Virus record (IMG/VR): IMGVR_UViG_3300037067_006298
Location: 1 to 64,000 of that record
Length of the DNA stretch: 64,000 bases
Source of the DNA: a virus
Taxonomy: Duplodnaviria > Caudoviricetes
Strand: one strand, 5' to 3'
A model generated the notes under the pieces. It worked only from the letters and a program-made list of their open reading frames with translations, made no database searches and had not been told where the DNA came from. This document shows positions 28,129 through 58,550 of the stretch, in pieces. The stretch's first letter is position 1; every line of letters starts with the position of its first letter. A program made the translations under genes and the position numbers.

Positions 28129-28137
28129 CTCGATAAA

Positions 28138-28554: not shown

Positions 28555-28558
28555 AATT

Positions 28559-31027: not shown

Positions 31028-31030
31028 AAT

Positions 31031-40686: not shown

Positions 40687-42060
40687 CTATTTTGCTTCCA
40701 AAAGAACCATCTGGTTGCCTCCCCTGTGATGTGCTCCAAGATGTGTTCTCTGGTATGTGTTGCGATTATCAATATCGGTCACTTTCAGACCTTCTCCTGC
40801 GCCACCTACCTGCCAAACTTCCATTCTCCGTGAATACTTGCCAAGAGCACGATAGCGAACACCAATGCTATCAATCATCTTGCCGGATTTTGGATCTTTT
40901 CTCTGGTTGAGTGGAAGGAATACTCCCATCTTAGGTGCGGTAGAACCTGCAACTCCATCAGTCTGCGGGTTATTGAATCCACCCATTCTCTTGAACATAA
41001 ATGTTCTCTCTGATTTGGTCAGATAGGTGAAGTTCACTGATGCACTAAGAGCCTCGTTGGAGTGGAACAATGCCTCGTTTGTTGCCTGTTTTGCAAAATT
41101 GATATTAGTGTTTGCAAAATAAGTTTTGAGTGCATTCTCAATATCCTGATGGAGTGATATTCCTAACAGTCCGAGGATATTATTTCCTGCAAACTCTCTG
41201 TCAAGAGTATTTGCCATTTCGTCAAACTCATCAACGGTAAATGCTCCGTCAACACAAGCCTGTTCGTTCCCTATTCGTCTGATATAAGGAATAAGTCCTT
41301 CTGTGGTTTTGATAGGACGGCCTGTTATAGGGTCTGTTATGACGTTTGTTGACCGTTTTCCCCAAAGGAGAGCACCATCAATCTTCAGTGCCATACGGTA
41401 GTCAATTTCAAGTTGTCCCTTGTAATAATATGCAGGGAGTGACTGTCCTTCGCTGGTAATTGTTACCCATGACTGATTGACCATTTCTGATCCGGTAACA
41501 CCAATGGATTCCTTGATTATCTGTGCATCATTGTCGTATTCCCATGTGCCGGATAATGCACCGGTTGGCTGTCCTGATCCTTCCGAAAATGCACTTGTCC
41601 TTATTGCAAGAGTATCTCCTGCGGAAAGTGCGGGGAATTGGTCTGTTATCTCATTAAGTCTTACCGTTACAACTGGTGCTGCCGGAACTGTGACATCAAT
41701 ATCAATAACTGATCCCATAGCCTCATTTGAGAACTTCAAAATATCCCATTTCCTGAGATAGAAATTGTTGTTTGCATCAAGGTCAACGGTATCGAGTGTG
41801 AATATGATGTTTGCGCCAACTGCGGGTTGTGCTACGTTGGCCCTAACATGAACAACTTCGTGAATATTATTATCCTCAAAGTGTCCGTAAGTGTCGAGTG
41901 CTACCGGTTGTTCAAATCCCATTGATCTGAGTAACTGGAAGTAAGATGCGCCCTGATCTCCCCGTCTGCTAAACAGGGTGTTCAAAATCTCTGGCTTGTG
42001 AAGGTCAAAGTTTGAAATGATGTCTGAGGCATATATTTGAGCAATAGCTTCTGGTCCCAT
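40687..42060 (-). CDS. major capsid protein (crAss-like HK97 fold)
   Basis: 457 aa after portal and scaffold; Y.N..QIIKES...TG, E...L.G, T.GL..YI motifs. Confidence 0.8.
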   Translation of the reverse strand: MGPEAIAQIYASDIISNFDLHKPEILNTLFSRRGDQGASYFQLLRSMGFEQPVALDTYGHFEDNNIHEVVHVRANVAQPAVGANIIFTLDTVDLDANNNFYLRKWDILKFSNEAMGSVIDIDVTVPAAPVVTVRLNEITDQFPALSAGDTLAIRTSAFSEGSGQPTGALSGTWEYDNDAQIIKESIGVTGSEMVNQSWVTITSEGQSLPAYYYKGQLEIDYRMALKIDGALLWGKRSTNVITDPITGRPIKTTEGLIPYIRRIGNEQACVDGAFTVDEFDEMANTLDREFAGNNILGLLGISLHQDIENALKTYFANTNINFAKQATNEALFHSNEALSASVNFTYLTKSERTFMFKRMGGFNNPQTDGVAGSTAPKMGVFLPLNQRKDPKSGKMIDSIGVRYRALGKYSRRMEVWQVGGAGEGLKVTDIDNRNTYQRTHLGAHHRGGNQMVLLEAK

Positions 42061-45722: not shown

Positions 45723-47945
45723 TTAACTATAAGTCCTTTTCTGAAAGAAGTTGTCAAGCACATATTCCTTCTCGTTCAATTCTTCTATCTCATCATAAAC
45801 TCCACGAGTCCCAAGTAATGCATATCCCCCTGCTGTGAATAAGTCATAATTAGTCATGTCTTCAGGACCATCAATATCCCTGCACTCTTCAAGAACTTCA
45901 ATATGAGTTTCAATATCCGCCTCGTTCTCAATCCATGTCATGTACTCAGTAAAAATGTCCTGTTTTACTTTGTTTGCAGTAGTCCCGGGAGTTTTGTTTA
46001 TCTCGAAAGTTTTAGGATCAATCTTAAAAAGTAGATATTCCGAATATCCTCTTTCTACAAAATAATCCCAAAGTAACGGAACGTCTATTTCAGGGAACAT
46101 CTTTACTCCATAATACACGCACATCATAAGCATATCTTCTGCATAGATATTTTTATCAAAAGTTCTCTGTGCATAGGTGCAGACAAATTTCCGTTTCATT
46201 GAAAAATCTCCGTCTCTGATTTTTCCTTTCCTTACAACGGCTCCTCCTCCTTTTGACTTTCTATTTCCCTCTGTGATATTGAATTTGAATGGGTCTCCTC
46301 CTGCTACTCCCCAATGCGTGTTTGCGGGTTCAATTAATCCATCATCATTCCTGATCCACTTATTAGATTCACTATCATTTAATTGTTGACTGAGACGAAA
46401 TTTGCCTTGCGGATTGGCAACAAAAATAACTTTGGAATCCCTGAGATTGTCTTTCCATGCAAAATTACCTACCGCAATATCCTGTCGTGCAAAAGTCAGA
46501 TTGTCAATATAGTTTTCAACTTTGTTCATATTGAACCCTGATGACTTTGATGCGGTTCTGAAACATTCTGCAAATCGGATAGGGTATAGTCTTATGTTTT
46601 CCGATAATTTCTCTTGGTCTAACTCATACCCTTTTCGTATGTTAAGCAAATACTCGTGTGCTCCTATTTTTCTTCCGATGTATTCCGCTTGCATTTTATT
46701 TGGTGTTCCCTTTATACTCATCCCGTACGGGTCAATGAATCCCTGTAATCCATCGTCTGCCGGAATAAATAAGTTTGCAAGGCCTGACTTAGTTTGTCCG
46801 TTCGGGTTTCGTTCATAATACTTACTCATGTTGCACTGGTCTTTAAATGCCTTCCCTCCTCCTTTTTCCATCTCTCCTACGGTGGAAGTCTTAATGGTGA
46901 ATCCGATTATATCACCTCCCATTACAAGGCATTCCTTGACTACTGCGTGTCGATCCCAACAAGAAAGTCCCTTTTTAAGTTTTCCCACCTCGTCATCATG
47001 ATGAAAATATAGTTTGTCACCATCATAAGCTGACGGGTCTGCCATTTCATAATTAATACCTGATTCAAGTCCCAAGTCTGACTTTGATAATGCTCCTTTT
47101 GAAGATAGTCTGGTCGCCGGAGGTGAAAATGAAAGTTCTGTTTTCGGAGACGTTGAACCCTCGTAACTTGGTTTAAAGAAGAAAGGCAATTTCTTCCATG
47201 GCGCAACAAGGTGTCTCAGGAAGCATTTACGAGCCTGAACATCATTCATAGACTGAATCCCTCCGAAAGCTCCCATCGTTCTGCTTATAATCTCGTAGTT
47301 GATACATTCAGCCTTGTACGTTGCTCCTTCCCTACGGTGTTTTGCATAATTGAACCCAAAGAATAGTCTTCTTCCGAAGTCAACCCATTCATATTTTCCG
47401 TCTTTGTCTCTTATGGCTTTCCCTTCTGCATCTACTCTTGGTGCCTTTGTTTCGGTGTATATTTTTCTGGCGAACAAAAAGAATCTTCGATCTCTGTCTC
47501 TGTATTTTGGTAATCCTACATCAATAAACCACCATCCGCAATAGAAGTAATGCCACCCGTCAATGTATGTTGGTACTCCATTATTGTAGAACCAATATCC
47601 CTGAAGCCTTCGTCTCCATTGTAGGTCAATAAACTCTATCTCTTCAGAATAAATATCCTTGTGTTCCTCCAATTGTTCCCATATCTCATCCAAAGTCTCG
47701 TGCTTTGATTGGAGTTCCTTTAATCTCTTTGGTAATTTAGGTGGGTGCCACATCTGTTCCTTTGCCGGAAGTCCAAAATTATCAATAAGATGAGGTTCTG
47801 GAGGCACTGGTAATTCAATCTCTATCGGGAACAAATCTTTATCATCGGTATTGACAAACACACTCTTCTCTGCATCCTGATATTGTGACAATATTTGAGG
47901 ATCAACTTCTTTATAATATCTCTTTAAGAGTGCAAGGTGGTTCAT
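45723..47945 (-). CDS. terL: terminase large subunit (crAss-like)
   Basis: FYNNGVPTYIDG.HYFY, K.RREGAT Walker A region, HHDDEVGK Walker B, GGDP nuclease, E.MLM..VYYG. Confidence 0.9.
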   Translation of the reverse strand: MNHLALLKRYYKEVDPQILSQYQDAEKSVFVNTDDKDLFPIEIELPVPPEPHLIDNFGLPAKEQMWHPPKLPKRLKELQSKHETLDEIWEQLEEHKDIYSEEIEFIDLQWRRRLQGYWFYNNGVPTYIDGWHYFYCGWWFIDVGLPKYRDRDRRFFLFARKIYTETKAPRVDAEGKAIRDKDGKYEWVDFGRRLFFGFNYAKHRREGATYKAECINYEIISRTMGAFGGIQSMNDVQARKCFLRHLVAPWKKLPFFFKPSYEGSTSPKTELSFSPPATRLSSKGALSKSDLGLESGINYEMADPSAYDGDKLYFHHDDEVGKLKKGLSCWDRHAVVKECLVMGGDIIGFTIKTSTVGEMEKGGGKAFKDQCNMSKYYERNPNGQTKSGLANLFIPADDGLQGFIDPYGMSIKGTPNKMQAEYIGRKIGAHEYLLNIRKGYELDQEKLSENIRLYPIRFAECFRTASKSSGFNMNKVENYIDNLTFARQDIAVGNFAWKDNLRDSKVIFVANPQGKFRLSQQLNDSESNKWIRNDDGLIEPANTHWGVAGGDPFKFNITEGNRKSKGGGAVVRKGKIRDGDFSMKRKFVCTYAQRTFDKNIYAEDMLMMCVYYGVKMFPEIDVPLLWDYFVERGYSEYLLFKIDPKTFEINKTPGTTANKVKQDIFTEYMTWIENEADIETHIEVLEECRDIDGPEDMTNYDLFTAGGYALLGTRGVYDEIEELNEKEYVLDNFFQKRTYS

Positions 47946-48787
47946 CTTGGAAATGTATTCTTAATTACTTGTTCATAATTAATCGAGAATAAACTTTGCA
48001 TTTTATGTTCTTCTATTGATAATTTGCTGATCCACCAATAAAACGCTTCATAAGGATCGTTAAAAAACTTACTTATGCTTTTTCCCGCATTAATATTCTT
48101 TTCAATGGAATTAACTGTTGTTGTTACAAATCGTGGAAACATTTTATATTCTCTCATCCTTTGAGGTTGTTGTCCTAAAGGACACCCGATACATCCAAGA
48201 CGATGAAATCCTTTATCATAAAAATCTGAATATGCAAGATTGTTCTTATGAATGTATGCCCATATATCTTTAGTCGTCCAGTGCATAATAGGATATACGT
48301 GAATCTTATCCTTTATCCTTGTGTCGCAAACTTCCGGTTCTTTAAGTGCTAATAACCGCCTCCCTCTCTTTGATATTTTTTTTGATGTTTTCCCTCTTTT
48401 AGCCCAACTTATTTCTTCTTCCCTTGACTCATCAATTCTTAATCCTTCGTAAGTTTTTGCGCCCTTACCGACATATTCTTTTAGATGTTGACAACAAAAT
48501 CTGTTCTGCCGTGTTGGTAGTCCATATTTTTCAATCAATTCCCAAAAAGAATAACGAGGTTGAATGATTTGTACATCAGGAAAATTATTTCTGATAAACG
48601 AAATATGCCCGGGAGGATCAATAGTTGTATTTTGATAACTATATGTAAAAGCAAGTCCCGTCTTTCTGGCTAATTCTTTTAAGACAACACTATCCTTACC
48701 TCCCGAAAACTGAACAATATTTTCACGTCTTGGGTCATAAAGACCAATCAGTATTTTGATACTCTGTTTTTCTAAATCTGTATTCAT
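47942..48787 (-). CDS. PAPS reductase family protein
   Basis: FSGGKDS PP-loop; RFCC..LK; GLR..ES; PI..W....IW.YI; R.GCIGCP. Confidence 0.85.
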   Translation of the reverse strand: MNTDLEKQSIKILIGLYDPRRENIVQFSGGKDSVVLKELARKTGLAFTYSYQNTTIDPPGHISFIRNNFPDVQIIQPRYSFWELIEKYGLPTRQNRFCCQHLKEYVGKGAKTYEGLRIDESREEEISWAKRGKTSKKISKRGRRLLALKEPEVCDTRIKDKIHVYPIMHWTTKDIWAYIHKNNLAYSDFYDKGFHRLGCIGCPLGQQPQRMREYKMFPRFVTTTVNSIEKNINAGKSISKFFNDPYEAFYWWISKLSIEEHKMQSLFSINYEQVIKNTFPR

Positions 48788-50100
48788 CTTCCTCGTAATG
48801 TGTATCCTTCCTCGTCATGGTGACAAGTAAGTGTTTTAATAAAATATCCTTTTCTACCTGTCTGCTTCATTTCTTCGGTAAGTCTTATCCAAAGGTCTGC
48901 ATCTCCCGGATTCGGTGTCCCTGTGGCCTCAAATACATCCCTATAACGTAATTTAGTGTCCGAATACTTCACGCAAGAACTTGATGCTATCATTCCTCCC
49001 GGAACCGGATAAAACTCTTCTACTTCGTTATTAAGTGGCTTATATGGCAAGTGGACAGTATTGTAACTTGATGCCGTGCAGACAAAAAATGGATTTTTTT
49101 CTTCAATAACCCGATTAATGAGTTCCAAATGATTGTTTCCCCATGAGTCATCGTGGTCTAAATGGCAGATATACTCAATACCATCTTTCAAAGCATGATC
49201 TATTCCTGTAATGAAAGCCGTCAATCCTCCGCTACACCACAACTTCATGTCTCCAAATTTATACTTCTCCCTTTCTACTGAATGTGGCAAGTTGATGCAC
49301 GTTACATTTGGGTATGGTGTTATTATTGTTTTCAGTTCCATGTCGTTATCATAATGATCTCCTATAACATAGACCTGAAAGTTCTTAAATGTCTGAGAAT
49401 GGATGCTTGCGAGTGCCCGTCTGAGGTATGCAGGAGTCTTCCCGTCTGGTCTCTGATAGGTTGCGATAACAACTCCTATCTTTGCTATGTTTTTTTTAAG
49501 AATGAAGCAATTACTTTCCGTAACAGTTAATGGAAATGCACCTATCTCATTTTTCATACACCCAATAACTTCATATCTATTGCCCATACATGAGACTATG
49601 CGATCAATTGCAGGTTTTACTTCGGGACTGAACTGACTATCCATGTAATCATCAAAAACAATATATCCTCCCGGTTTCACCATCCCTGAGTACATCTCAA
49701 AGTCCTGAGTTACATCAGTAAATGAGTGTCCTCCATCAATGAATAATATATCTATGCCTCCATGAATACTATTTCTTATCCTGTTGACTATATTTACGTC
49801 ATGTGAACTCCCCTGTATGTACTCAAACTTATTTCCGGGATAATTATGTCTTAAAACATTTGCGTATGCGATATTTGGGCTTATTGGAGTTCCTGTATCA
49901 ATGGAAAATACATTAGTCTTAGGTCTTTGAGTCATAAGACATGCGCTCGCTCCCGCATAACACCCGATTTCTACATAATTTATTTCACCTTCATACATAC
50001 TGGCAATGTCATAAAGAACATGAAAGTGATGATGAAATGTTTTTACGGTCTTGCTAATCTCTGCAAGTAGATCGAGTGACTTTTGAGAATGAATTATCAT
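48784..50100 (-). CDS. class I SAM methyltransferase (Methyltransf_24-like) fused to GT2 glycosyltransferase
   Basis: VEIGCYAGAS, ILFIDGGH, LVKPGG.IVFDDY-like; VIATYQR, L.SI..QT, HLDHDDSW. Confidence 0.8.
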   Translation of the reverse strand: MIIHSQKSLDLLAEISKTVKTFHHHFHVLYDIASMYEGEINYVEIGCYAGASACLMTQRPKTNVFSIDTGTPISPNIAYANVLRHNYPGNKFEYIQGSSHDVNIVNRIRNSIHGGIDILFIDGGHSFTDVTQDFEMYSGMVKPGGYIVFDDYMDSQFSPEVKPAIDRIVSCMGNRYEVIGCMKNEIGAFPLTVTESNCFILKKNIAKIGVVIATYQRPDGKTPAYLRRALASIHSQTFKNFQVYVIGDHYDNDMELKTIITPYPNVTCINLPHSVEREKYKFGDMKLWCSGGLTAFITGIDHALKDGIEYICHLDHDDSWGNNHLELINRVIEEKNPFFVCTASSYNTVHLPYKPLNNEVEEFYPVPGGMIASSSCVKYSDTKLRYRDVFEATGTPNPGDADLWIRLTEEMKQTGRKGYFIKTLTCHHDEEGYTLRGR

Positions 50101-50825
50101 ATAAATTGTAATATTGTTTGTGATTTAAAATTAGCAAATCTCTTTTCTTCTTTATCAAAATAAGATTTATCTATCTCAAAACCAATAAAGTTAATTTCTG
50201 ATTTATATGCAGCTATTCTATTAGAACCACTTCCCAGATGAGTATCAATAACCCACATCCCACTTTCCCCAAATTCTTTATACATCAAATCATAAATTAA
50301 TACAGGTTTTTGAGTTGGATGTATTCTTTTTTCATTGAGTTTTTTGTTTCCTTGTTGTATCATTGGTTCTTTTAAACTTTTGGCTTGCATCATTCCCGCC
50401 CAAAGAAGTGGTACTGTTATTTCATAATCAATAAAACTACAATAAGCAACTTCATATCTATTAAAACTTACTCCATCGGCGACTCCTTTGTCCCATCTAA
50501 TCCTTCCGTTTCCTAACCCTGTCCAATTTACAAATTCAACTCCAAAAATTATTTGATGTCTACTGATTCTTAAAAGTTCATCAAAGTATTCCTGTCCCGG
50601 GACTTCTTTATCCCAATCTTTTAATTCATAAGGTACTTTATTTCTATTTCCATTCAATCTTGTTCCATTCTTCTGCTTTACGGTTGTGTTCATTTCTTTT
50701 AAAAATGGCATGTTTGCAACATCTTTCCCATAAGGTATGTCACAAACAGCAATATCAAATTGTTTGTCTTTAAAAGAATATATTTTATTTCTATAATCTT
50801 CATTATAGACTATACTGGTTAACAT
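50097..50825 (-). CDS. DNA N6-adenine/N4-cytosine methyltransferase
   Basis: DIPY (DPPY-like), HPTQKPV, DTHLGSGS, GFEID. Confidence 0.85.
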   Translation of the reverse strand: MLTSIVYNEDYRNKIYSFKDKQFDIAVCDIPYGKDVANMPFLKEMNTTVKQKNGTRLNGNRNKVPYELKDWDKEVPGQEYFDELLRISRHQIIFGVEFVNWTGLGNGRIRWDKGVADGVSFNRYEVAYCSFIDYEITVPLLWAGMMQAKSLKEPMIQQGNKKLNEKRIHPTQKPVLIYDLMYKEFGESGMWVIDTHLGSGSNRIAAYKSEINFIGFEIDKSYFDKEEKRFANFKSQTILQFI

Positions 50826-51523
50826 ATTATTGTTTTGTAATTACAGGTTTTTGTTTGATTGAAAATATTGGGATTGTTTTTTCTAAACTCATAATACGGA
50901 TGCCCTTTCTGGTAGTAATCCCACGTCAGATGATATGCCTTTGCACCCTTTGTTTTTACCCATCTTAATCCCTTAGATGCACATGCCATACGAAAATCAT
51001 CATCTATTGAACGGGGTGCATTAAAGAGAATGTCAAGGTCTTTATTTTGAAGTGTCATCAAATGTGCTCCACTATCACACCAGATATAATCTTTGGTTAC
51101 TTGTTTTGCTCTCGGAATCCAATCGGAAGGTTTTGCAATATGATGTGGAAAATTGCTCATATTCAAATCTACCGTGCATACCCCTACTTCCGGGTGTTGA
51201 AGTATCTGCCAAATCTCCTGAAATGTATTTGCCGTATTATTTACAAGCAAGTCTGCATCAGTAAAAGTGATATAAGGATATTGTCTTATTAATGGTTGAA
51301 AGTCTCTCAGGAATATCTTAACTGCGTTATCCGCTATATTTTCCTCGAACTGAATATATCCTTTTAGTCTTTGTTGAATTAAAAATGCCTCTATCTGTGG
51401 ACTGTTTGGACTCTTGTTTTCAACAATGAAGTAATCCTTGTTGTCCATGTACATACTCTCGAAACACTTTGCAATATGTTCGTGGTTATTATAACACCAT
51501 AATATGCAAAGATGATTATTCAT
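50819..51523 (-). CDS. GT-A fold glycosyltransferase-like protein
   Basis: YNN.E.I.KC.ES, IVENKS, FTDADL (DxD), A.HL.W. Confidence 0.55.
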   Translation of the reverse strand: MNNHLCILWCYNNHEHIAKCFESMYMDNKDYFIVENKSPNSPQIEAFLIQQRLKGYIQFEENIADNAVKIFLRDFQPLIRQYPYITFTDADLLVNNTANTFQEIWQILQHPEVGVCTVDLNMSNFPHHIAKPSDWIPRAKQVTKDYIWCDSGAHLMTLQNKDLDILFNAPRSIDDDFRMACASKGLRWVKTKGAKAYHLTWDYYQKGHPYYEFRKNNPNIFNQTKTCNYKTIIC

Positions 51524-52158
51524 TTACGATGATAATTTGGCACGATAACCCTGTCTGTGTTGTTACACGTCAGAAGTTCATTGCTTCCAATATTCACGTC
51601 AACTGTTACTCCCGCATGCACGGCACTATCGTTTCCGATATTTATGTGAGGTACCACCGATGATCTTATGCCAAAGAAGTTCCGATCTCCTATTGTGCAA
51701 TGTCCGCATACGATTGTTGCGGATAATATATTATGATTTCCTACGGTGCAGTCATGCCCGATGTCGCACCAGGGAGTAAGGTAATTGAAGTCACCAAGTT
51801 TCACATTTGCCCCGATTAGCGACCATGCTCCTACAATGTTTCCCTCTCCCTTTATCTCTGACTGAACAATACAAGATGAATGGATGACATTTGGAAATTT
51901 GGCTCCCTTTGCCTTCATTATAGCAACTACCTTTTGCCGGAAGTCAATATGTGTCATCCCAAGAACAAATACATCATCTGGCCCCGGACGATAATTGTCG
52001 ATAGTTCCAAGTATGGGATACTTCTGAAGATTGTCGTACTGCTTGTAGTATTTCCCGATGTTCTCAGGATATTCCAAGAATCCCAAGATGCCTTCAGGAA
52101 ACAAACTCATTATTTCTGATACGGCACCACCTGTGCCAATTATGATTATATTATTCAT
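51520..52158 (-). CDS. NeuD/PglD-type sugar acetyltransferase
   Basis: IIIGTGGA N-terminus, F..VIH, hexapeptide repeats with IGHDC; start at 52158 (MNNIII). Confidence 0.85.
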   Translation of the reverse strand: MNNIIIIGTGGAVSEIMSLFPEGILGFLEYPENIGKYYKQYDNLQKYPILGTIDNYRPGPDDVFVLGMTHIDFRQKVVAIMKAKGAKFPNVIHSSCIVQSEIKGEGNIVGAWSLIGANVKLGDFNYLTPWCDIGHDCTVGNHNILSATIVCGHCTIGDRNFFGIRSSVVPHINIGNDSAVHAGVTVDVNIGSNELLTCNNTDRVIVPNYHRK

Positions 52159-52795
52159 GTTGTGTATAAATTTTGTGTTTACTGAGGTCGGGGTACGGTA
52201 ACTCGATGTCCGGCATTTGTTTTTTTGTACCATTAACGTTATAAAACTTCGCCATATTGAGAAGTCCAAGAGATGCAATCATTGGATTCATGTAAAAGTT
52301 ATAACCAATCATCTTAAAAGAATCCTGAACAAGATAACCGCACTCCTCTCTTCCTGAGAAACGAGCCTTTTTAAACCACACATAAGCATCATAATTATCA
52401 GTTAAAATACACCCTCCCTTCCCCAGATTCAAGTGCTTATAAGCTCCTGTGAATGAACAACACATATAGGTATCTGGTAAGTACATATCCCCTGTGAATC
52501 TGAGTGCGGAATCCCATACTTTGCTTCCAAGTAACGGATACGCTCCTTTCAAATATCCATCTACACTTCCTGTTGGTTTATAGAACTTTACATTTCCTCC
52601 TGCATGTATGATTTCGCACGGAATTGACGGATAGGTATAGCAAGGTATAACGATATCCTTCCCTTTGATGTTATCATACATCAACGCAAGGAATATAGCA
52701 TTGCTTTGATTATCTACCGTTACACAATATGGTGCTCCGGTGTATTTGCATATTTCCTCCTCAAAAGCCCTTGTTACTTCATGCACGTTGTTCAT
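52151..52795 (-). CDS. DegT/DnrJ/EryC1/StrS PLP aminotransferase (short form)
   Basis: FEE.I..YTGA.Y...V.N.SNAI.LAL, P..TY.S, SF...YKHL..G.GG.I.TD, GYN.YM. Confidence 0.8.
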   Translation of the reverse strand: MNNVHEVTRAFEEEICKYTGAPYCVTVDNQSNAIFLALMYDNIKGKDIVIPCYTYPSIPCEIIHAGGNVKFYKPTGSVDGYLKGAYPLLGSKVWDSALRFTGDMYLPDTYMCCSFTGAYKHLNLGKGGCILTDNYDAYVWFKKARFSGREECGYLVQDSFKMIGYNFYMNPMIASLGLLNMAKFYNVNGTKKQMPDIELPYPDLSKHKIYTQHE

Positions 52796-53015
52796 AGCAT
52801 TTCTTTATTTCGTTTTCGATTAACTTAAAACTTATCAAATTTCCTACTGCCTCGTCCGGGATTATTATGTCAAACTCCCTTTCCAGAAATACAATCATCT
52901 GTACGTGATGTATGGAATCCCAATTTGAGGTATTATCCATATTGGACTGATCGGTTATTTTCTCAATAGGCATCTCGAATACCCTTGCCATAACCTTTTT
53001 TATTCTCTCATTCAT
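52779..53015 (-). CDS. acyl carrier protein
   Basis: 78 aa acidic; WDSI.HV....LE.EF.I phosphopantetheine Ser motif. Confidence 0.9.
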   Translation of the reverse strand: MNERIKKVMARVFEMPIEKITDQSNMDNTSNWDSIHHVQMIVFLEREFDIIIPDEAVGNLISFKLIENEIKKCYEQRA

Positions 53016-53982
53016 AACGGAAGTATTTTGCTGCGTGTGGTTTGTAGTCGTTACTATTTATTGTGAATATACTTTTATCATCTGTAAAGTTAAATCCAAG
53101 TTTCGGATAAAAGTCTGCCACCTGTCCATTTTTTGATGTCGGGACATAAATACCTAAAACTAATGTATCTGATTTTCGTTTCTTGTAGTCTTTCATTATC
53201 TTGTCTATAAAGGCATATTCAATGCCTCTGCCAAGTATCCGACAACTTAACAAGAATATATCTATAACTCCATGATATATTGCACATACTCCTGTCAATC
53301 CATTATCTCCAAACTTATCCTTTACCGACAAGGTATATACATATCCAGACGCCATGAATCTCTTTATATTATCCTCATTACAACGATGGGATGTCAAGTT
53401 GAATTGATTTGTCTTTTGAGTAAGTTCCACAATACGTGGGATGTGTTTCGATTCATTGACCTCTATTTTGAGCACCATGTCAAGAGATGCAAGGTATTCA
53501 TTGATGTCCGTGAATTGTTCCTTTGCTTTCGCTCTCTGGTAGTTCTCCTTGTACTGTTGGGTCTTTGTGAAATTTCCTTTGAGGTCAAAATTATCCAAAA
53601 CAACTCTCGTTAACTCTTGGGGAGTGATTGTCATTACTTCCGGCAACTGTTTCTTTACAAGTTCCCTTTCAAATTCAGAATCATCTACAAATACTATCGC
53701 ATCCAACCCGACATTAAGTTCTTCTGCAATCTCTTTCAGATTCGATGCCTTGTCGTTCCAATTAATGCGTTTTACAGAGATATATTTCTCGGTCAATAAC
53801 TGATCTTTCATTGCCTCTATCACGTCTGTTTCATTGTTCTTGCTACACAATCCAATGATTACACCATGATTTGCAAAGAATATAATATCTTGCTGCAGGT
53901 CGGTGTCGTGTTTTATTTCTTCTTCTCCAACAATCCCTTTCCATAGGGTGTTATCGCAATCAAAGATTATTGCTTTTTTCAT
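53008..53982 (-). CDS. fkbH: FkbH-like HAD-IIIC glyceryl-ACP synthase
   Basis: DCDNTLW.G, CSKN, INWNDK..N, FVDDS..E, KTNQFNL, DKFGD.G, LSCR.LGRG.E. Confidence 0.92.
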   Translation of the reverse strand: MKKAIIFDCDNTLWKGIVGEEEIKHDTDLQQDIIFFANHGVIIGLCSKNNETDVIEAMKDQLLTEKYISVKRINWNDKASNLKEIAEELNVGLDAIVFVDDSEFERELVKKQLPEVMTITPQELTRVVLDNFDLKGNFTKTQQYKENYQRAKAKEQFTDINEYLASLDMVLKIEVNESKHIPRIVELTQKTNQFNLTSHRCNEDNIKRFMASGYVYTLSVKDKFGDNGLTGVCAIYHGVIDIFLLSCRILGRGIEYAFIDKIMKDYKKRKSDTLVLGIYVPTSKNGQVADFYPKLGFNFTDDKSIFTINSNDYKPHAAKYFRYE

Positions 53983-54359
53983 TCCTTACATTTTACTAAT
54001 GAAGTACTACTTAATACCATTACTCCGTGTTGATTATGTATGTTTATTCCAAGTTTTATCTGATTAAACTTTGGCATTTTATCCATTACTTGAGCCTCTA
54101 TGGTTAACTCATCGTTCACATAGACAGGACTCAAAAAAGACATATTCTGTCTTACCCAAATTGCTCCATCTCCCGGCAAATGCATTCCTATCATTGTAGA
54201 AATAAAAGATGCCACTAACATACCGTGAACAATAGCATTTTCTCCAAAGTGTATAGAATTAGTATCGCCTGTAATTGCTACAAATGTATAGACGTCAGAG
54301 GCGTATATAGCAACTTTTTTGGACATTTTTTGTCCAATTTTAATTTCTTCGTACTTCAT
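53979..54359 (-). CDS. MaoC family (hot-dog) dehydratase
   Basis: F..ITGD.N.IH...IVHGML..S.IS, F..PVY..D.L; start 54359 overlaps fabH stop (ATGA). Confidence 0.88.
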   Translation of the reverse strand: MKYEEIKIGQKMSKKVAIYASDVYTFVAITGDTNSIHFGENAIVHGMLVASFISTMIGMHLPGDGAIWVRQNMSFLSPVYVNDELTIEAQVMDKMPKFNQIKLGINIHNQHGVMVLSSTSLVKCKE

Positions 54360-55312
54360 AGCATCCTCCATAGATTTGCTCCAAAATTGAATCCTGCTCC
54401 AACACCTACAAGCATAAGTAAATCGCCTGACTTTATGAGTTTTTTATTTACAGCCTCATCAAGTGCTATTCCAATACTTGCTGCACCGGTGTTTCCTATC
54501 TCGTCAACATTGATGTATGACTTCTCTCGAGGTATTCTCATCTTGTCAAGGATATACTCATTAAGCACCTTGTTTGCCTGATGAAAGATAAAAAAATCAA
54601 TCTCACCAATGCTAAGATTTTCCTCTTTGAGAAGTTCTTTTATTGAATATGGCATATTGGTTACTGCCATCGTCCAAGTCTTGTGTCCTTCGTGTTCAAT
54701 TAGTCCTCCTTTTTTTAATCGGGTGTCCTCGTAATAGGTTGAATCGGTACAAAAGAATGAATTGATATGCCCAATGCCGTACGGTGTCCTTCCAAGCAAT
54801 ATCCCTGATGCTCCATCACTGAAAAATGGTGCCGAATATTTATCTGTCTTGTCAGTTAGTCTCGATAGTATCTCTACTCCGATGACAATGGCATATTTTA
54901 TCTTCTGGTTTCTTCGCATGGTATCTACTGCAATATCGGATGCAGTAATGAGTCCGGTGCATACTCCGTTTACATCTATTACTTCACAATGTTTTGGACC
55001 TCCTATTGCCTGATGTATCTTTGCAGACATTGGAGGAAACACATAATCCTGACTGAAAGAGGCAATCATAATGAGTCCTATTTCTTTCGGGTCTATGTGT
55101 GGAAATCCGTCTTTGAGTAATAACTTCTTTGCCACGATAGTTGCCATAGAAGATGCCGTCTCTCCCTCTGATACATAATACCTGCGTTTTATGCCAAGTT
55201 TTGACATTATCCATTCCTCTGTCATTCCGGGAACATTCTGACATACTTCCTTATTGGTGTTGATGTTGTTGGGCAAATAACTTGCCGTTTTGATTATTCC
55301 TATTCCGTTCAT
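54356..55312 (-). CDS. fabH: 3-oxoacyl-ACP synthase III (FabH-like)
   Basis: Cys-His-Asn triad: GVCTG, HQAN, GNTGAAS; LGI..R; GAG. Confidence 0.92.
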   Translation of the reverse strand: MNGIGIIKTASYLPNNINTNKEVCQNVPGMTEEWIMSKLGIKRRYYVSEGETASSMATIVAKKLLLKDGFPHIDPKEIGLIMIASFSQDYVFPPMSAKIHQAIGGPKHCEVIDVNGVCTGLITASDIAVDTMRRNQKIKYAIVIGVEILSRLTDKTDKYSAPFFSDGASGILLGRTPYGIGHINSFFCTDSTYYEDTRLKKGGLIEHEGHKTWTMAVTNMPYSIKELLKEENLSIGEIDFFIFHQANKVLNEYILDKMRIPREKSYINVDEIGNTGAASIGIALDEAVNKKLIKSGDLLMLVGVGAGFNFGANLWRML

Positions 55313-55316
55313 ATTA

Positions 55317-55826
55317 TTATTTTAAAAGTTCAATATTCTCATAAATATTACCAATAACAAACGGAGAATAAAATTTTTGAATATCCGAATCAAAACATCT
55401 CGATAAAAGTCCCCATCTATTAAATTTATTTTTACAATAAAATGCCCCGTCCTCAAAATAAACAGTCATCGGGCCATTTTCCTTAGACATTGCGATTAAA
55501 ATATCCCCTTCGTATATTTCTTTGCCATTCTTGTCTTTCAACCCTGTAAATTCAACTACTTCGTATTCGTCTGAATAATTAAGAGACCTTGTTGCTAAAT
55601 CATCAATTGGAAGTAATCCAATTATTTGACCGTCAATAGTAAAAAATACACATTTGCCTTGAATGCGATTACATTCTTTACCGTCTTCGGAAAATTCAAA
55701 TTTGTTATCAAAAAACTGGTTAGGTTTTCCATTAGTGTAAACTCCTTTCTGCCAATCATACGGATATACTTTTAAGAAAGCTCCAGTTTCTTTATGCCAT
55801 AATTTAAACCTATGTTCTCGTTTCAT
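55317..55826 (-). CDS. YopX family protein
   Basis: FTGLKDKNGKEIYEGDIL, VIGNIYEN.ELL. Confidence 0.85.
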   Translation of the reverse strand: MKREHRFKLWHKETGAFLKVYPYDWQKGVYTNGKPNQFFDNKFEFSEDGKECNRIQGKCVFFTIDGQIIGLLPIDDLATRSLNYSDEYEVVEFTGLKDKNGKEIYEGDILIAMSKENGPMTVYFEDGAFYCKNKFNRWGLLSRCFDSDIQKFYSPFVIGNIYENIELLK

Positions 55827-56527
55827 TTATGAAGTCCTCCAAGATAAATTGTTTGCGAAGTAATATAACCTGATTTTTCTGAGCAAAAGAAGTCAATGAC
55901 ATTAGTTATGTCGTCAATGGTTGCTTTGCGTGGTATTGGGAATGTCTTAACTAACGCATCCACCGTCTCCGGCTTGTGTTGTGCAAGCATATCCGTATCA
56001 ATAGCCGATATTGCAAGGGTGTTACAAGTTATGTTCTGACGTGCATACTCTTTTGCAAGGATATTTGTCATAGTTTTCAGTCCGGCTTTGCAAGCTGCAT
56101 ACACACTGTCTCCCATTGCCTCGCACACATCCGCAATTGAACCGATGTTTATTATTCTGCCATAAGGGATGTCGTACATGAGTTTTGATGCCTCCCTGCA
56201 CACCAAAAACGGTGCGAGTAAATCCACCATTATCATTTGATATGCATCAAATCCAGGCATTTTCTGTGAGAATCTGGAAGACATAATGGCTGCATTGTTG
56301 ATACAAATATCAATTTCTGAGGTAAGTGCTTTTATCTCAGAAAATACTTTTTCTATTTCTATTGGCATTGATAAATTAACTGCATAATGACGATAATTTA
56401 TGTCATCCTGAACTTCACTTCCACTTATGCCTATTACTTTTGCATTATGGGCAAGGAAATGTTCTGCAATACTTCTTCCAACACCTCTACTTGTTCCTGT
56501 TATTAAAACTGTTTTTTCGTTGTACAT
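55823..56527 (-). CDS. SDR oxidoreductase (FabG-like)
   Basis: TGTSRGVG, NNAA, IINIGS, YAACK (YxxxK), YITSQ.I...GG. Confidence 0.9.
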   Translation of the reverse strand: MYNEKTVLITGTSRGVGRSIAEHFLAHNAKVIGISGSEVQDDINYRHYAVNLSMPIEIEKVFSEIKALTSEIDICINNAAIMSSRFSQKMPGFDAYQMIMVDLLAPFLVCREASKLMYDIPYGRIINIGSIADVCEAMGDSVYAACKAGLKTMTNILAKEYARQNITCNTLAISAIDTDMLAQHKPETVDALVKTFPIPRKATIDDITNVIDFFCSEKSGYITSQTIYLGGLHK

Positions 56528-56529
56528 AA

Positions 56530-56739
56530 TTATTGATTTAGAATATTTGGGAACACTGAAATTAATTCACCTATTCTCGGATGGTTTTCAGGATACATCC
56601 ATCCTTTCGGTAGTGGATTTTTTGCCCTGAACTCCCATTTGTTTTTTTCTTTTACAAGTTCTGTAATAACTGATAAAAAAACTTCTTCCCTTTTTGTCTT
56701 TGCTTTCATGTCATTTGTATTTAATGGGAAATATTGCAT
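56530..56739 (-). CDS. hypothetical protein
   Basis: Short ORF filling gap; start uncertain. Confidence 0.4.
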   Translation of the reverse strand: MQYFPLNTNDMKAKTKREEVFLSVITELVKEKNKWEFRAKNPLPKGWMYPENHPRIGELISVFPNILNQ

Positions 56740-57331
56740 CTCCCGGCTCCACGTGAGGTGCTGAATAAAAATTTGGTTTGCCCATATATATCCATTGTTC
56801 TGCTAAAAAACGATTAGTATGATTGAGTTCACTTATTGGAGGACATCTATTGATATACTCCCTTCGGAACCACCAGAAATTACCAGAGAAATGATTTGGG
56901 GACTTCAGATAACCAATGGAGGACACATCATAACCATTCTCTACCCTATCTCTATGTTCCTGATAGCGATTTATCAGTTGCTCATTCATCATTGATCTCC
57001 AATGATTTATAGGTACTTCAAATGGTCTGGTTACTGCTTTGGTGTGGAAATATAATCCTACATACTGTGAGTCATCTGCCTCGATTAGCCTGAGTGTAGG
57101 AAACTCGTAGTCCTCTGGTCTGTTTGAGTAATATTTGATTTTTAACTTCGGGTACACGTTAACAAAATACTTTTCAAGAAAGGCTTTCTGGTCTGGCGCA
57201 CCAATGCACCCAATGTTTATTTCCTCACATTCGTCATAAAGTCCTGACGTAAGTAATATGCGCATTTGATCTGTAATTACCGTGTACCAATGCGATACCA
57301 TCCAAATATGCCAAAACACTTTTGCTGTCAT
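56711..57331 (-). CDS. glycosyltransferase-like viral protein
   Basis: FWHI, YEFPTL, LYFHTK, W...M, HFSGNFWW....YI, R..AEQWI pattern seen in viral glycosylation islands. Confidence 0.5.
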   Translation of the reverse strand: MTAKVFWHIWMVSHWYTVITDQMRILLTSGLYDECEEINIGCIGAPDQKAFLEKYFVNVYPKLKIKYYSNRPEDYEFPTLRLIEADDSQYVGLYFHTKAVTRPFEVPINHWRSMMNEQLINRYQEHRDRVENGYDVSSIGYLKSPNHFSGNFWWFRREYINRCPPISELNHTNRFLAEQWIYMGKPNFYSAPHVEPGDAIFPIKYK

Positions 57332-57966
57332 TTGTTTTCTTCTTTAAATGCTGGTTCTCCGTTCTGTGCCCTCTTTGCAAAGTCCTCCGGTCTGAGTGCA
57401 ATTCTTTCGTCCTCCAAGCAACGAAGCATTTCGTCTTTCAGATAGGGATTTGAGTCTTGGTTGAGCATTTCCAAAAGATTCTCTTCCAAATTATCCCTTA
57501 GTTCTGCAAGTTTAGAAATGCTTTTTGTTTCTCCTGACTGTATTTCGAGCATGAGATTGCAATAGGCAGTCTCAATACTGATTTGATATGCGTACTTGTA
57601 CGACCTATGGAGCATAACATATTGGCAAATCTTCTGATTAACCACCTTATTTTTCCCCTTTAGAAAATCTTCAACTACCGGTTCAAACACTCCTCCTCCT
57701 TCTACTTTGAAATCACAATCGTGTGCTACTTCAATTTTCCTCTTTAGTACATCAGAATATTTTCTGCGATATGGAGAATGAGCATCATACATACATAACA
57801 CGTATTGCATCACCTTGGTATTGTCAAGACTTTCTCCCGGATTTGCTCTGAACTCTTTTATTTTTCCAAGGTCCTTGTAGAATTTAAGAATATCCGTACC
57901 GTCTGGTACTTTTGTCGGATCGAATCTCATTTGAGAATACTCCTTCGGATGGAACTGCCCTTTCAT
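57328..57966 (-). CDS. conserved hypothetical, possible small terminase-like protein
   Basis: Y...MYD..SPY motif; start 57966 overlaps upstream stop (ATGA); function inferred from position only. Confidence 0.4.
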   Translation of the reverse strand: MKGQFHPKEYSQMRFDPTKVPDGTDILKFYKDLGKIKEFRANPGESLDNTKVMQYVLCMYDAHSPYRRKYSDVLKRKIEVAHDCDFKVEGGGVFEPVVEDFLKGKNKVVNQKICQYVMLHRSYKYAYQISIETAYCNLMLEIQSGETKSISKLAELRDNLEENLLEMLNQDSNPYLKDEMLRCLEDERIALRPEDFAKRAQNGEPAFKEENK

Positions 57967-58550
57967 AATATCCAATTTATATACGGTTTGCCTTCGTAAT
58001 TTCTGTCCCATACAAACCATGCAAACGGAATCATACCTCCGTTCTTGTGAGTGCCTGCATGTATCCCAAAATTTACACGCTTACTGAATTGATAAACGCA
58101 TTTCAGGGGAAATTTCTTATCCTGAAACATCTCATATCTCTTTGCTCCTTCAAGGAAGGCGGTTTTCAGAAACATTGCTATTTTAATCTGAGAATATTGT
58201 TTTGCTTGAAAAACAAATTCCAATGCAAGGTCGAATGGAGGATTTGTTATTATGTTATCCACGGCAGGGAATGGTGCCGAAAATACTGAGTTATCATTTA
58301 AGAAATCTATATCCGGAACACCGTATCCATAGTTGTTAAGGTCCGAACTTTTGACATCATATCCTTGTTCAATAAGAACTTTTGATATATCTCCCATGCC
58401 ACAGGCAGGTTCCCATACACTCCCCTCAAATTTTTCATGTAGCAATAATGCTTTTGTTGCACTTGGAGGTGTCGGATAAAAATCTGCCTTGGATCTTCCA
58501 AGCCGACTATTATCGCCTGCTATCTTTCTAGCTGTATCTACTGAACTCAT
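57963..58550 (-). CDS. adenine-type DNA methyltransferase-like protein
   Basis: DFYPTP, WEPACGMG.IS, SSDL, ITNPPF, AWFVW. Confidence 0.8.
   Translation of the reverse strand: MSSVDTARKIAGDNSRLGRSKADFYPTPPSATKALLLHEKFEGSVWEPACGMGDISKVLIEQGYDVKSSDLNNYGYGVPDIDFLNDNSVFSAPFPAVDNIITNPPFDLALEFVFQAKQYSQIKIAMFLKTAFLEGAKRYEMFQDKKFPLKCVYQFSKRVNFGIHAGTHKNGGMIPFAWFVWDRNYEGKPYINWIL

Follow-up and report, generated by a model that had tools for sequence, protein, structure and literature searches.

A variable gene island beside the terminase of a crAss-like phage encodes a predicted amino-sugar glycosylation pathway

What would a set of sugar-modifying genes do beside the packaging genes of a phage, and where would their product go? 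The window analyzed here (the whole 64,000-nucleotide stretch) belongs to the complete, 77 kb genome of a podophage-like (crAss-like) phage whose host probably belongs to the Flavobacteriia. A preliminary description of positions 48784-52795 named a DegT aminotransferase, a NeuD/PglD-type acyltransferase, a GT-A-like gene and a methyltransferase-GT2 fusion, and read them, together with the ACP/FkbH block upstream, as completing a candidate glycosylation system. All four genes are present on the minus strand with overlapping stop and start codons, and they lie in the distal half of a 9.4 kb glycan island between orf230 and the large terminase gene, TerL (Table 1). From position 59607 to TerL there is no intergenic gap, stops and starts overlap, and the start of TerL overlaps the preceding gene by 4 nt. 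The named genes are real and not chance open reading frames: related phages carry homologues of 53-94% identity, arranged in matching order.

Table 1. Features of the glycan island and its borders
Feature	Coordinates	Strand	Evidence or remark
Large terminase (TerL)	45723..47945	-	phrog_6681, E 2.5e-73; right border of island
PAPS-reductase-like gene	47942..48787	-	PF01507, 76 bits; phrog_424
CmcI/rhamnosyl-O-methyltransferase-like + GT2 fusion	48784..50100	-	PF13578, PF04989, PF00535
N6/N4 DNA methyltransferase	50097..50825	-	phrog_23224, E 1.2e-41; PF01555
Orphan protein, 234 aa, probable GT-A glycosyltransferase	50819..51523	-	Language-model neighbors and DxD
NeuD/PglD/PerB-type left-handed beta-helix (LbH) N-acyltransferase	51520..52158	-	TIGR03570, E 2.4e-31
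Mini-DegT (sDegT), predicted PLP sugar aminotransferase core, 214 aa	52151..52795	-	PF01041
Acyl carrier protein (ACP)	52779..53015	-	NCBIfam ACP models, E 4e-9, below cut-off; DS motif
FkbH-domain HAD-IIIC protein, candidate glyceryl-ACP loader	53008..53982	-	TIGR01686
MaoC-type dehydratase	53979..54371	-	PF01575, 47.8 bits
FabH-type ketoacyl-ACP synthase III	54356..55312	-	NF006829, 236 bits
YopX-family gene	55317..55826	-	PF09643, 60 bits
FabG-like short-chain dehydrogenase (ketoreductase), acyl line	55823..56527	-	adh_short_C2, 124 bits
orf69, small ORF	56530..56739	-	
orf206, DUF8361-type GT-A glycosyltransferase-like	56711..57331	-	Conserved first gene, almost every island
orf230	57328..58020	-	Conserved backbone gene; left border of island
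Second DNA-methyltransferase-like gene	57963-58550		In or beside island

Across 78 related phage loci, the interval from orf230 to TerL is either empty or filled with one of at least 10 distinct glycan cassettes, and at this one shared site the relatives' islands range from 0 to 8.6 kb. In 13 island-free relatives orf230, which has no Pfam or PHROG match, adjoins TerL directly (5-51 bp). The glycosyltransferases described below were not found in the island-free complete genomes, in a search whose positive control matched 5 of 5. No convincing transmembrane segment was detected in the 139 island proteins scanned, and the island is an accessory, swappable block of soluble enzymes adjoining the terminase gene. 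The small orf69 has no family match, forms a single-member cluster, and was not found by tblastn of the related loci.

The aminotransferase, sDegT, falls in the DegT/DnrJ/EryC1 family (61.5 bits vs a Pfam cut-off of 19.8) but has 214 residues instead of the usual ~370. Because its best 120 homologues are equally short (206-223 aa, 62-89% identity), it represents a conserved short family and not a truncated gene. Asp95 and the motif SFTGxxK120 are invariant across 30 sDegT sequences. The AlphaFold2 model (pLDDT 91.9) has its best Foldseek matches to perosamine synthase, WlaRG, PseC and QdtB (TMq 0.60-0.66); compared with 8vr3, approximately 25 N-terminal, 47 internal and approximately 125 C-terminal residues are missing, and sDegT lacks the C-terminal domain present in every characterized family member. 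In at least 55 protein clusters sDegT is fused to GT4 and an FkbM methyltransferase.

The acyltransferase is assigned by TIGR03570 to the NeuD/PglB/VioB-type hexapeptide family, its best PDB matches are PerB, LpxA, PglD and VioB, and its HDC motif aligns with PerB. The listed reading frame (51520-52278) opens at TTG; the true start is likely the ATG at 52158, since the resulting 212 aa product matches homologues of 209-212 aa. Upstream lies a putative acyl line consisting of the ACP, FkbH-domain, MaoC, FabH and FabG-like genes. The FkbH-domain protein scores 239.7 bits against a TIGR01686 cut-off of 146.65, the Cys, His and Asn motifs of the FabH-type protein align with 2ebd, ACP homologues come after FkbH in L028, L029, L032, L092 and L094, and FabG-like homologues are found in L028 and L029. 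Wherever the acyl line occurs in the loci compared, an amino-sugar N-acyltransferase accompanies it.

Three candidate glycosyltransferases accompany these enzymes. The gene previously noted as GT-like, orf206, has a GT-A fold (AlphaFold2 pLDDT 94.5) that aligns with the C-terminal GT-A domain of heparosan synthase 2 (8viw, VIA Z 14.0), with Foldseek matches to GtrB, DPMS and RmlT. Its BFVD matches (TMq 0.72-0.80) include giant-virus glycosyltransferases and a 638-aa entry, its ESM Atlas neighbors are DUF8361 (89-93% viral), and proteins of 500-2000 aa combine its domain with GT1, GT2 and MT24 domains. For the 234-aa orphan, profile tests of the GT-A-like assignment were negative, with no Pfam, NCBIfam or PHROG match, but 18 of its 30 language-model (Atlas) neighbors carry PF00535 (GT2) and its D89xD91 (DxD) motif is invariant. 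The family comprises 37 proteins, all without Pfam domains, and adjoins a GT2 gene in L007, L028, L029 and L013; from these features the orphan is a probable GT-A glycosyltransferase. The fusion protein contains a methyltransferase domain (residues 43-152; Methyltransf_24, PF13578, 59.8 bits, and PF04989, 36 bits) followed by a GT2 domain from residue 210 (PF00535, 34.6 bits), and in L010 and L007 the two domains are separate neighboring genes.

The analysis supports the original reading of these genes as a module for tailoring and transferring an amino sugar together with the ACP/FkbH block, and we consider the following enzymology probable. In the cytoplasm, late in infection, sDegT would aminate a host NDP-4-keto-6-deoxyhexose, and the NeuD/PglD-type transferase would acylate the new amine with a short hydroxy-acyl group made on the phage ACP by FkbH, MaoC, FabG and FabH. 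Sugars would then be transferred by three soluble GT-A-type enzymes, namely orf206, the GT2 half of the fusion and the 234-aa orphan, and the CmcI-like half of the fusion may O-methylate a sugar. Thus the O-methyl part of the product proposed earlier is plausible, while the O-acetyl part is not supported, no O-acetyltransferase being present. The pathway is also not self-contained: a 4,6-dehydratase was looked for in this genome and not found, and the keto-sugar substrate is therefore assumed to be supplied by the host. The sequences show the gene identities, the conserved catalytic motifs, the predicted folds, the variability of the island and its lack of membrane or lipid-carrier parts; the substrate, the acyl group, the sequence of reactions and, most of all, the acceptor are inferred.

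An N-acyl amino-sugar product is suggested because islands of relatives join a dehydratase, sDegT and an N-acyltransferase, and because of a precedent in F. psychrophilum (wfpC-G/pglEF; PMC6519341). Some cassettes place a 4,6-dehydratase beside sDegT and an N-acyltransferase, whether or not the ACP block is present. The L032 island has MaoC, FkbH, ACP, GNAT, an FdtA ketoisomerase, a dehydratase, sDegT and GT2 genes. L014, L015 and L026 combine orf206 and five GT2 genes with a Polysacc_synt_2 dehydratase, sDegT and an LbH N-acyltransferase that scores 166 bits to PDB 3vbi. The 3vbi series is presumably the AntD-type N-acyltransferase of anthrose. These three islands hold the exact trio of C. 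jejuni PglF/PglE/PglD (diNAcBac), in which dehydratase, aminotransferase and LbH N-acyltransferase act in turn; the window differs from it in having no dehydratase and another LbH subfamily, and all three phage enzymes are shortened.

By analogy, the closest characterized chemistry would be that of the F. psychrophilum ACP-dependent N-acyl-bacillosamine O-antigen and Mimivirus 2-O-methyl-viosamine. The F. psychrophilum O-polysaccharide locus, found in the phage's probable host class, contains pglF, pglE, wfpC (KAS), wfpD (ACP), wfpE (KAS), wfpF (KR) and wfpG (PglD homologue), with predicted functions leading to UDP-D-Qui2NAc4N(3,5-dihydroxyhexanoyl); the PglD homologue is predicted to transfer an ACP-borne acyl group to UDP-Qui2NAc4N (PMC6519341). 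In both systems a dedicated ACP, ketosynthase and ketoreductase are found alongside a sugar aminotransferase and an acyltransferase of the PglD type, and in both an ACP-borne hydroxy-acyl group would be attached at the 4-amino position of a 6-deoxy sugar. The bacterial locus, however, is chromosomal, Wzx/Wzy-type and lipid-linked, and it encodes a 4,6-dehydratase as well as a PglE of full length. In the phage the aminotransferase is only 214 aa long, FkbH and MaoC are additional, and the dehydratase and membrane components are missing. Mimivirus likewise uses a viral aminotransferase and a PglB/PglD-like N-acetyltransferase (R141/L136/N-L142) for a 4-amino-4,6-dideoxyhexose, with the N-acetyltransferase fused to a glycosyltransferase in a pathway leading to UDP-Vio4NAc (PMC9614988). 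That eukaryotic giant virus differs in its full-length aminotransferase (structure solved), its own dehydratase, and its use of acetyl-CoA instead of an ACP-borne acyl group.

Two genes inside the island, the DNA methyltransferase (overlooked among the four named genes) and the PAPS-reductase-like gene, are missing from L013, L028 and L029. Both are exact gene-sized insertions relative to the nearest relative (blastn indels 50103-50818 and 47949-48781) and are therefore placed outside the glycan pathway. The YopX-family gene, missing from the otherwise collinear L028 and L029 islands, is probably also an insertion outside the pathway, judging by gene order. DNA genes in or beside the island (two methyltransferase-like genes, plus the PAPS reductase) could suggest that the glycan hypermodifies DNA bases and blocks restriction, as glycans of two or more sugars can be assembled on DNA by phage glycosyltransferases (bioRxiv 10.1101/2023.12.21.572611; PMC13326640). 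In L009 and L010, moreover, the sDegT module lies among replication genes, between gp32-like and RecA-like genes, and not among structural genes. We regard DNA as a very improbable target because a search of the genome found no thymidylate-synthase-type hydroxymethylase, hydroxylase or C5-methyltransferase, and because in the virion DNA of the cultured Flavobacterium phage vB_FspM_immuto, which has an sDegT-PglD pair inside a five-glycosyltransferase cluster, LC-UV-MS/MS found dA, dC and dT in canonical form and fdPreQ1 in place of dG as the sole change, with no glycosylated base (PMC10516641). A TET/JBP search of the genome gave no match, and neither did its control. The gene-sized indels also weigh against DNA, as the methyltransferase and PAPS reductase are missing from other full islands.

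Of the three targets that the preliminary description left open, we favor a virion protein over the host envelope, with DNA last. Remodeling of the envelope would have the phage NDP-N-acyl-amino sugar and soluble glycosyltransferases act on undecaprenyl-linked O-antigen, capsule or O-glycan intermediates, and the altered glycan on infected cells and debris would exclude superinfection or keep progeny off debris. The island chemistry is that of Bacteroidota O-antigens (PMC6519341), its hypervariability parallels O-antigen diversity, and cytoplasmic glycosyltransferases without transmembrane segments can use lipid-linked acceptors. However, among the 139 island proteins there is no membrane protein of any kind, nor an initiating phosphoglycosyl transferase, a flippase, a polymerase or a ligase, the genes sit in a late packaging/head operon and not among early genes, and the conserved lead family, orf206, is overwhelmingly viral. 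The serotype-converting phages known so far are temperate and rely on Gtr or Oac proteins of the membrane. We consider envelope remodeling unlikely, if the strongest competitor to the virion.

The search for a virion acceptor found none and bears on this question as well. Relatives with and without an island have capsid proteins of equal length, with no extension, and none of the virion ORFs has a Ser/Thr-rich tract. This is compatible with the envelope and also with a product off the virion. Such a product could be a glycoconjugate that is free or lipid-like, or a glycan attached to a cytoplasmic protein of the host or a non-structural one of the phage, perhaps to disable a defense protein. 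The island is dispensable, and FkbH, FabH and ACP chemistry occurs in small-molecule pathways too. Yet at least three glycosyltransferases plus sugar tailoring, cassette-swapped at a fixed site next to the head genes, resemble surface-glycan loci and not metabolite clusters, and the acyl line is consistently tied to the N-acyltransferase; an off-virion product is thus rather improbable, more so than an envelope glycan.

A virion protein is our tentative first choice, held with a little less than even confidence, because the island proteins are soluble and their genes continue into the terminase gene with no gap between them. We know of no amino-sugar tailoring or acyl line reported in mycobacteriophage glycosylation. 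In virion glycosylation as reported by Freeman et al. 2023 (cited in PMC12619734 and PMC12582341), mycobacteriophages have soluble glycosyltransferases near structural genes and glycans on capsid and tail that vary between relatives; their hosts are actinobacterial and the acceptors are the C-termini of capsid and tail tube proteins, with no matching extension here. In Mimivirus, R141/L136/L142 lead to 2-O-methyl-Vio4NAc, an O-methylated sugar, on the fibril polysaccharide, a demonstrated target, whereas for the phage island a particle target is proposed; PBCV-1 A064R (GT-GT-methyltransferase) finishes the capsid N-glycan and, like the fusion here, joins a viral methyltransferase to glycosyltransferase domains, although in another domain order and a eukaryotic host system (PMC9614988). 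The orf206 fold also matches viral multidomain glycosyltransferases (TMq up to 0.80). The flagellin islands of Enterobacteriaceae and Aeromonas are similarly hypervariable, with soluble glycosyltransferases, DegT aminotransferases, methyltransferases and ACP/FabG-type genes, and, in the cytoplasm, glycosylate a structural protein that self-assembles (PMC4875605, PMC7874193), but they are bacterial and use Maf or FlmG-type transferases, often with nonulosonic acids, none of these families being found here. The likeliest acceptor would be a structural protein made by the phage itself, which would give particles with a strain-variable glycan coat.

The virus record is complete, with 76,666 bp and direct terminal repeats, and the genes of the window (bases 1-64000) are nearly all on the minus strand. 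The island of accessory glycan genes lies immediately upstream of TerL (the large terminase), the portal gene and the capsid gene, and all abut gap-free: adjoining island genes overlap by 4-17 nt or have a few bases between them, and the non-coding gap from 59607 to TerL is zero. Scans for sigma-70 promoters and terminators, and counts of the Bacteroidota -7 motif, gave no excess over chance. The four genes named for 48784-52795 in a preliminary description (aminotransferase, acyltransferase, GT-A-like gene and methyltransferase-GT2 fusion) are real, and the list was incomplete, having overlooked the DNA methyltransferase at 50097-50825. The host is probably one of the Flavobacteriia, since podophages infecting Flavobacterium, Cellulophaga, Tenacibaculum and Maribacter provide the closest cultured relatives of the TerL sequence (28-32% identity). 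A megablast search with 9 kb against 50,697 phage records returned no match.

Genes of the glycan island and the adjoining packaging and head genes
Feature	Coordinates	Strand	Remarks
orf230	57328-58020	-	backbone gene
orf206	56711-57331	-	GT-A fold
orf69	56530-56739	-	
FabG-like SDR	55823-56527	-	
YopX	55317-55826	-	
FabH	54356-55312	-	Cys, His, Asn motifs retained
MaoC	53979-54371	-	
FkbH	53008-53982	-	TIGR01686, 240 bits
ACP	52779-53015	-	
Short DegT (sDegT)	52151-52795	-	PF01041, 61.5 bits
NeuD/PglD-type acyltransferase	51520-52158	-	TIGR03570, E 2.4e-31
Orphan 234-aa gene	50819-51523	-	invariant DxD
DNA methyltransferase, N6/N4	50097-50825	-	
Methyltransferase-GT2 fusion	48784-50100	-	CmcI/rhamnosyl-O-methyltransferase-like domain + PF00535
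PAPS reductase	47942-48787	-	
Large terminase TerL	45723-47945	-	phrog_6681, E 2.5e-73
Portal	43393-45684		phrog_6547
Capsid-type structural protein	40687-42060		phrog_13704

A terminase-based search yielded 78 related loci. In 13 of these orf230 abuts TerL within 5-51 bp, and the remaining loci hold 3.1-8.6 kb of genes between the two; the island of the window, at 9.4 kb, is the largest. Clustering and Pfam scans distinguished at least 10 different gene sets, which include many GT2 genes, GT10-, GT11-, GT17-, GT25- and GT92-like genes, sugar C-methyltransferase, FkbM and MT24 methyltransferases, a RmlD-like reductase, a B12-radical-SAM enzyme and homing endonucleases. An orf206 homologue is the first gene in nearly every island, and the full FabG-FabH-MaoC-FkbH-ACP-sDegT-NeuD-GT-MT/GT2 set occurs only in the related loci L028/L043 and L029 (53-84% identity). 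Genes of the orf206 family or GT2 were matched in five of five island-bearing genomes and in none of three complete island-free genomes, and the island is thus dispensable.

GIY-YIG/NUMOD3 homing endonucleases were found at two left island borders, between the orf230 and orf206 homologues (L072:1296-2201, L078:4706-5461), and an HNH endonuclease inside a third island (L044:6511-7143); such enzymes may drive cassette exchange. In another related locus, L039, an orf206-type gene (at about 1365) lies upstream of an orf120 (4375)-orf233-orf230 block whose orf230 abuts TerL, so glycan genes can occupy a second site away from the terminase. The L060 record, a complete relative, has an orf206-family copy (G007:C1:50266-50826) interrupted by one TGA and one TAA, which is a decaying paralogue within an island.

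The aminotransferase belongs to PF01041 (DegT/DnrJ/EryC1/StrS; gathering threshold 19.8), as first described, and is far from an ordinary member. Characterised DegT-family proteins are fold-type-I enzymes about 360-440 aa long, built of two domains, of which the small one is C-terminal; sDegT is 214 aa long, lacks this architecture and consists of the large domain only. In a PDB sequence search, residues 6-58 aligned with 32-85 of 8vr3 and residues 89-184 with 163-249, leaving sDegT without about 25 N-terminal, 47 internal and 125 C-terminal residues of that protein. The pyridine-nitrogen Asp95 and the PLP Schiff-base Lys (K120) align with the same motifs of 8vr3, and D95 and the S114-F-T-G-x-x-K120 motif (SFTGxxK) are invariant in 30 of 30 aligned family members. 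The AlphaFold2 model (pLDDT 91.9) matches sugar aminotransferases only (perosamine synthase, WlaRG, PseC and QdtB) with TMq of 0.60-0.66, and TMt of 0.33-0.40 against the full-length enzymes.

A search of 5.8 billion proteins returned 5,586 matches to sDegT, the best 120 of which are all 206-223 aa long with 62-89% identity. We considered a truncated pseudogene and ruled it out, since family members hardly vary in length and are strongly conserved. The domain also forms the C-terminus of GT4-FkbM methyltransferase-sDegT proteins of about 866 aa (at least 55 clusters), which ties it to glycan assembly, and in the islands of relatives it adjoins a 4,6-dehydratase, FdtA isomerase and N-acyltransferases. 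From this genomic context, transamination of an NDP-keto-sugar is its putative reaction. Fused mini-DegT database matches are P0308-P0362 and P0102, and one copy stands behind a DUF4406 (nucleoside deoxyribosyltransferase-like) domain. As a very large family pared to about 210 residues, these proteins would be smaller than all other members of the DegT group and are worth biochemistry whatever the target of the glycan.

The match of the acyltransferase to TIGR03570 covers model positions 2-197 of 202 and scores 108.9 bits, below the curated cut-off of 160.8. The protein has a GTGG start motif, as in a nucleotide-binding-like N-terminal domain, and the hexapeptide repeats of a left-handed beta-helix, its best solved relatives are PerB, LpxA, PglD and VioB, and its HDC motif, of which we take the His to be the catalytic base, aligns with that of PerB (4ea7). 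PerB, PglD and VioB N-acylate NDP-4-amino-4,6-dideoxy sugars. No O-acetyltransferase family was detected, and the O-acetyl group proposed in the preliminary description was rejected. The subfamily of the acyltransferase (F13) is confined to islands with the ACP block, and ACP-free islands use another left-handed beta-helix (LbH) type, a restriction that is suggestive only as a pointer to the acyl donor (acetyl-CoA or acyl-ACP). FkbH-DH-KR loading modules serve as a model for the chemistry of the ACP line and, by that analogy, its product could be a lactyl, glyceryl or C4-C5 hydroxy-acyl group. A search for bacterial sources of the FkbH block did not find one and returned only three distant loci at 33-42% identity (Omnitrophota, Saccharibacteria and an unclassified MAG). 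In the literature searched, there was no report of a phage-encoded ACP, FabH, FabG, MaoC and FkbH line feeding a sugar N-acyltransferase.

The remainder of the glycan chemistry first proposed is supported, its N-acyl amino-sugar part by islands of relatives in which a 4,6-dehydratase (in one case with FdtA), sDegT and an N-acyltransferase occur together. Three loci (L014, L015 and L026) share the order orf206, 260-aa Polysacc_synt_2 4,6-dehydratase, sDegT, hexapeptide transferase and GT2 genes, which is the PglF/PglE/PglD order; their hexapeptide transferase scores 166 bits to PDB 3vbi, which we take to be AntD, the N-acyltransferase of anthrose. A further island (L032) encodes a methyltransferase, MaoC, FkbH, ACP, GNAT, FdtA 3,4-ketoisomerase, 4,6-dehydratase, sDegT and GT2 proteins, and in a siphovirus (L007) sDegT, LbH, the 234-aa GT, GT2 and MT24 run directly after the tail genes. 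Elsewhere among phages, the gene after sDegT encodes WbqC, a sulfotransferase or GT2. Cassette partners include a B12-binding radical-SAM protein, and a sulfotransferase and WbqC directly after sDegT (L042:6452-7555, L011:6984-7829, L008:5451-6113, L012:9418-10185).

Neither PF02719 nor any extended SDR was found in the 76,666-bp genome, which hence has no 4,6-dehydratase, and the keto-sugar would have to come from the host. Such a supply is plausible because the products of RmlB, Gmd and PglF are common. The best characterised parallel is the O-antigen pathway of F. psychrophilum, in which the proposed product of pglE and pglF, acting with WfpG (a PglD homologue), two ketosynthases, an ACP and a ketoreductase, is UDP-Qui2NAc4N(3,5-dihydroxyhexanoyl) (PMC6519341). 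An aminotransferase, PglD homologue, dedicated ACP, ketosynthase and ketoreductase are all present in the locus of the window. Unlike that pathway, the phage lacks a PglF-type 4,6-dehydratase, which islands of its relatives do have, and its island lacks lipid-linked assembly (initiating transferase, flippase and polymerase).

For sugar transfer, the C-terminal half of the fusion protein matches PF00535 with 34.6 bits (threshold 23.3), and other phages carry its two domains as separate adjacent genes. The GT-A-like call made earlier for 50819-51523 gains from an invariant DxD and from language-model (Atlas) neighbours that carry GT2, and is unproven: the 37 proteins of its orphan family carry no Pfam domain, the gene had no match in Pfam or in a profile search of PDB sequences, and hhalign did not tie it to GT2 (probability below 1%). 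We therefore regard it as a probable GT. The GT-like gene noted at 56711-57331 is borne out by a confident structure model of orf206 (pLDDT 94.5) with a GT-A fold. The model fits best to Pasteurella heparosan synthase 2, in its C-terminal domain (Z 14.0, rmsd 2.8 Å, 165 residues), and next to KfiA, ArnC, GtrB and DPMS. Sugar nucleotidyltransferases have the same fold and are also among the matches, so the fold alone is no proof of transferase activity, and a clear DxD was not seen in orf206.

The orf206 family comprises 2,393 representative clusters and is frequently present as one to four domains within proteins of 500-2000 aa that have GT1, GT2 and Methyltransf_24 domains as well. In the Atlas it neighbours DUF8361 clusters, 89-93% viral in content, and predicted viral structures (BFVD) match it with TMq of 0.72-0.80, including Klosneuvirus and Harvfovirus glycosyltransferases. 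Modelled BFVD matches of 638 aa and 445 aa suggest a tie to chlorovirus A064R, which we treat as a lead only. This GT-A family, common to phages and giant viruses, is likewise worth biochemistry irrespective of target.

Alignment of the window with its nearest relative, L013 (TerL with 96% protein identity), gives three blocks, and what they leave out are two gene-sized indels: 50103-50818, which is the DNA methyltransferase, and 47949-48781, which is the PAPS reductase. Both genes were considered as pathway members and rejected: these exact indels mark them as passengers, and both are absent, together with YopX, from the L028 and L029 islands. At each insertion the stop and start codons overlap, which keeps the operon translationally chained. 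YopX lies between the FabG-like gene and FabH; the collinear L028 and L029 islands lack it and instead have a class-I methyltransferase (L028:4269-5141) between FabH and MaoC. Beyond the island, an ORF at 57963-58550 (195 aa) overlaps the orf230 start by 58 nt, matches only positions 200-378 of 458 in phrog_799 (DNA methyltransferase, E 9e-57) and had no homologue by tblastn in any related locus; it is possibly a short or partial second methyltransferase of the backbone.

As the target of the glycan, virion proteins are the favoured candidates. Among 139 island proteins there was no convincing transmembrane segment, and no initiating transferase, flippase, polymerase or ligase was found in the island; the island genes are chained to packaging and head genes, and the lead GT family (orf206) is essentially viral. 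Together these features fit cytoplasmic glycosylation of a phage-made protein. That the island remodels the host envelope, for which such membrane and lipid-carrier parts are missing, is less probable. The GTs of the phage adjoin its structural module, as in virion glycosylation of the mycobacteriophage type; mycobacteriophage capsid and tail proteins are glycosylated according to work cited in PMC12619734. Comparable viral cases are known: Mimivirus fibrils bear 2-O-methyl-Vio4NAc made by R141, L136 and L142, and the chlorovirus capsid glycan is finished by the GT-GT-MT protein A064R (PMC9614988). In bacterial flagellin islands, too, DegT genes stand together with methyltransferase and ACP/FabG genes (PMC4875605). 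Candidate acceptors are the capsid protein, the products of 39210-39536 and 37350-39197, and the tail-tip pieces at 25486-32998. It counts against a virion target that the search for an acceptor found none: the capsid protein aligns over residues 1-455 with the same length in island-bearing and island-free relatives, and no virion ORF has a Ser/Thr-rich tract, the only such tract (14/30) being in a small plus-strand ORF outside the window.

A glycan placed on phage DNA, based on 5hmC, 5hmU or 5hoC, is a weak alternative. The genome has no thymidylate-synthase-like enzyme (PF00303) and no C5-methyltransferase (PF00145), a search for PF12851 (TET/JBP) was empty, with a control that was likewise silent, and the adjacent DNA-modification genes are unrelated insertions. 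In the cultured Flavobacterium phage vB_FspM_immuto, which carries a homologous module, LC-UV-MS/MS found canonical dA, dC and dT, and only fdPreQ1 in place of dG (PMC10516641), which is indirect evidence. The sDegT-PglD pair of that phage lies inside a five-GT cluster (MW353176, genes 89-101).

Glycosylation of virion proteins could be part of a wider arrangement, which we put forward tentatively: a virion "serotype locus" of Flavobacteriia podophages, in which a cassette site beside the terminase holds phage-only enzymes for variable particle glycans, here with an acyl amino sugar, and endonucleases aid exchange. The DUF8361 GT-A, the 210-aa mini-DegT and the orphan GT would be phage-only families that act in the cytoplasm and build O-antigen-like glycans, differing between strains, straight onto particle proteins. 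The glycan of this phage would include an amino sugar with a short hydroxy-acyl chain made on the phage-encoded ACP, resembling the N-acyl-bacillosamine of the O-antigens of its hosts, and homing endonucleases at island borders would help to exchange cassettes. To our knowledge, phage-particle glycans have been shown only for mycobacteriophages and, among other viruses, for giant viruses, and no paper in the literature searched links Crassvirales to glycosylation. If the island coats virions, an environmental Bacteroidota phage lineage would have an exchangeable glycan locus much like the O-antigen loci of bacteria. This would matter for the recognition of hosts, for the stability and grazing of particles, for evasion of antibodies and for the definition of phage "strains".
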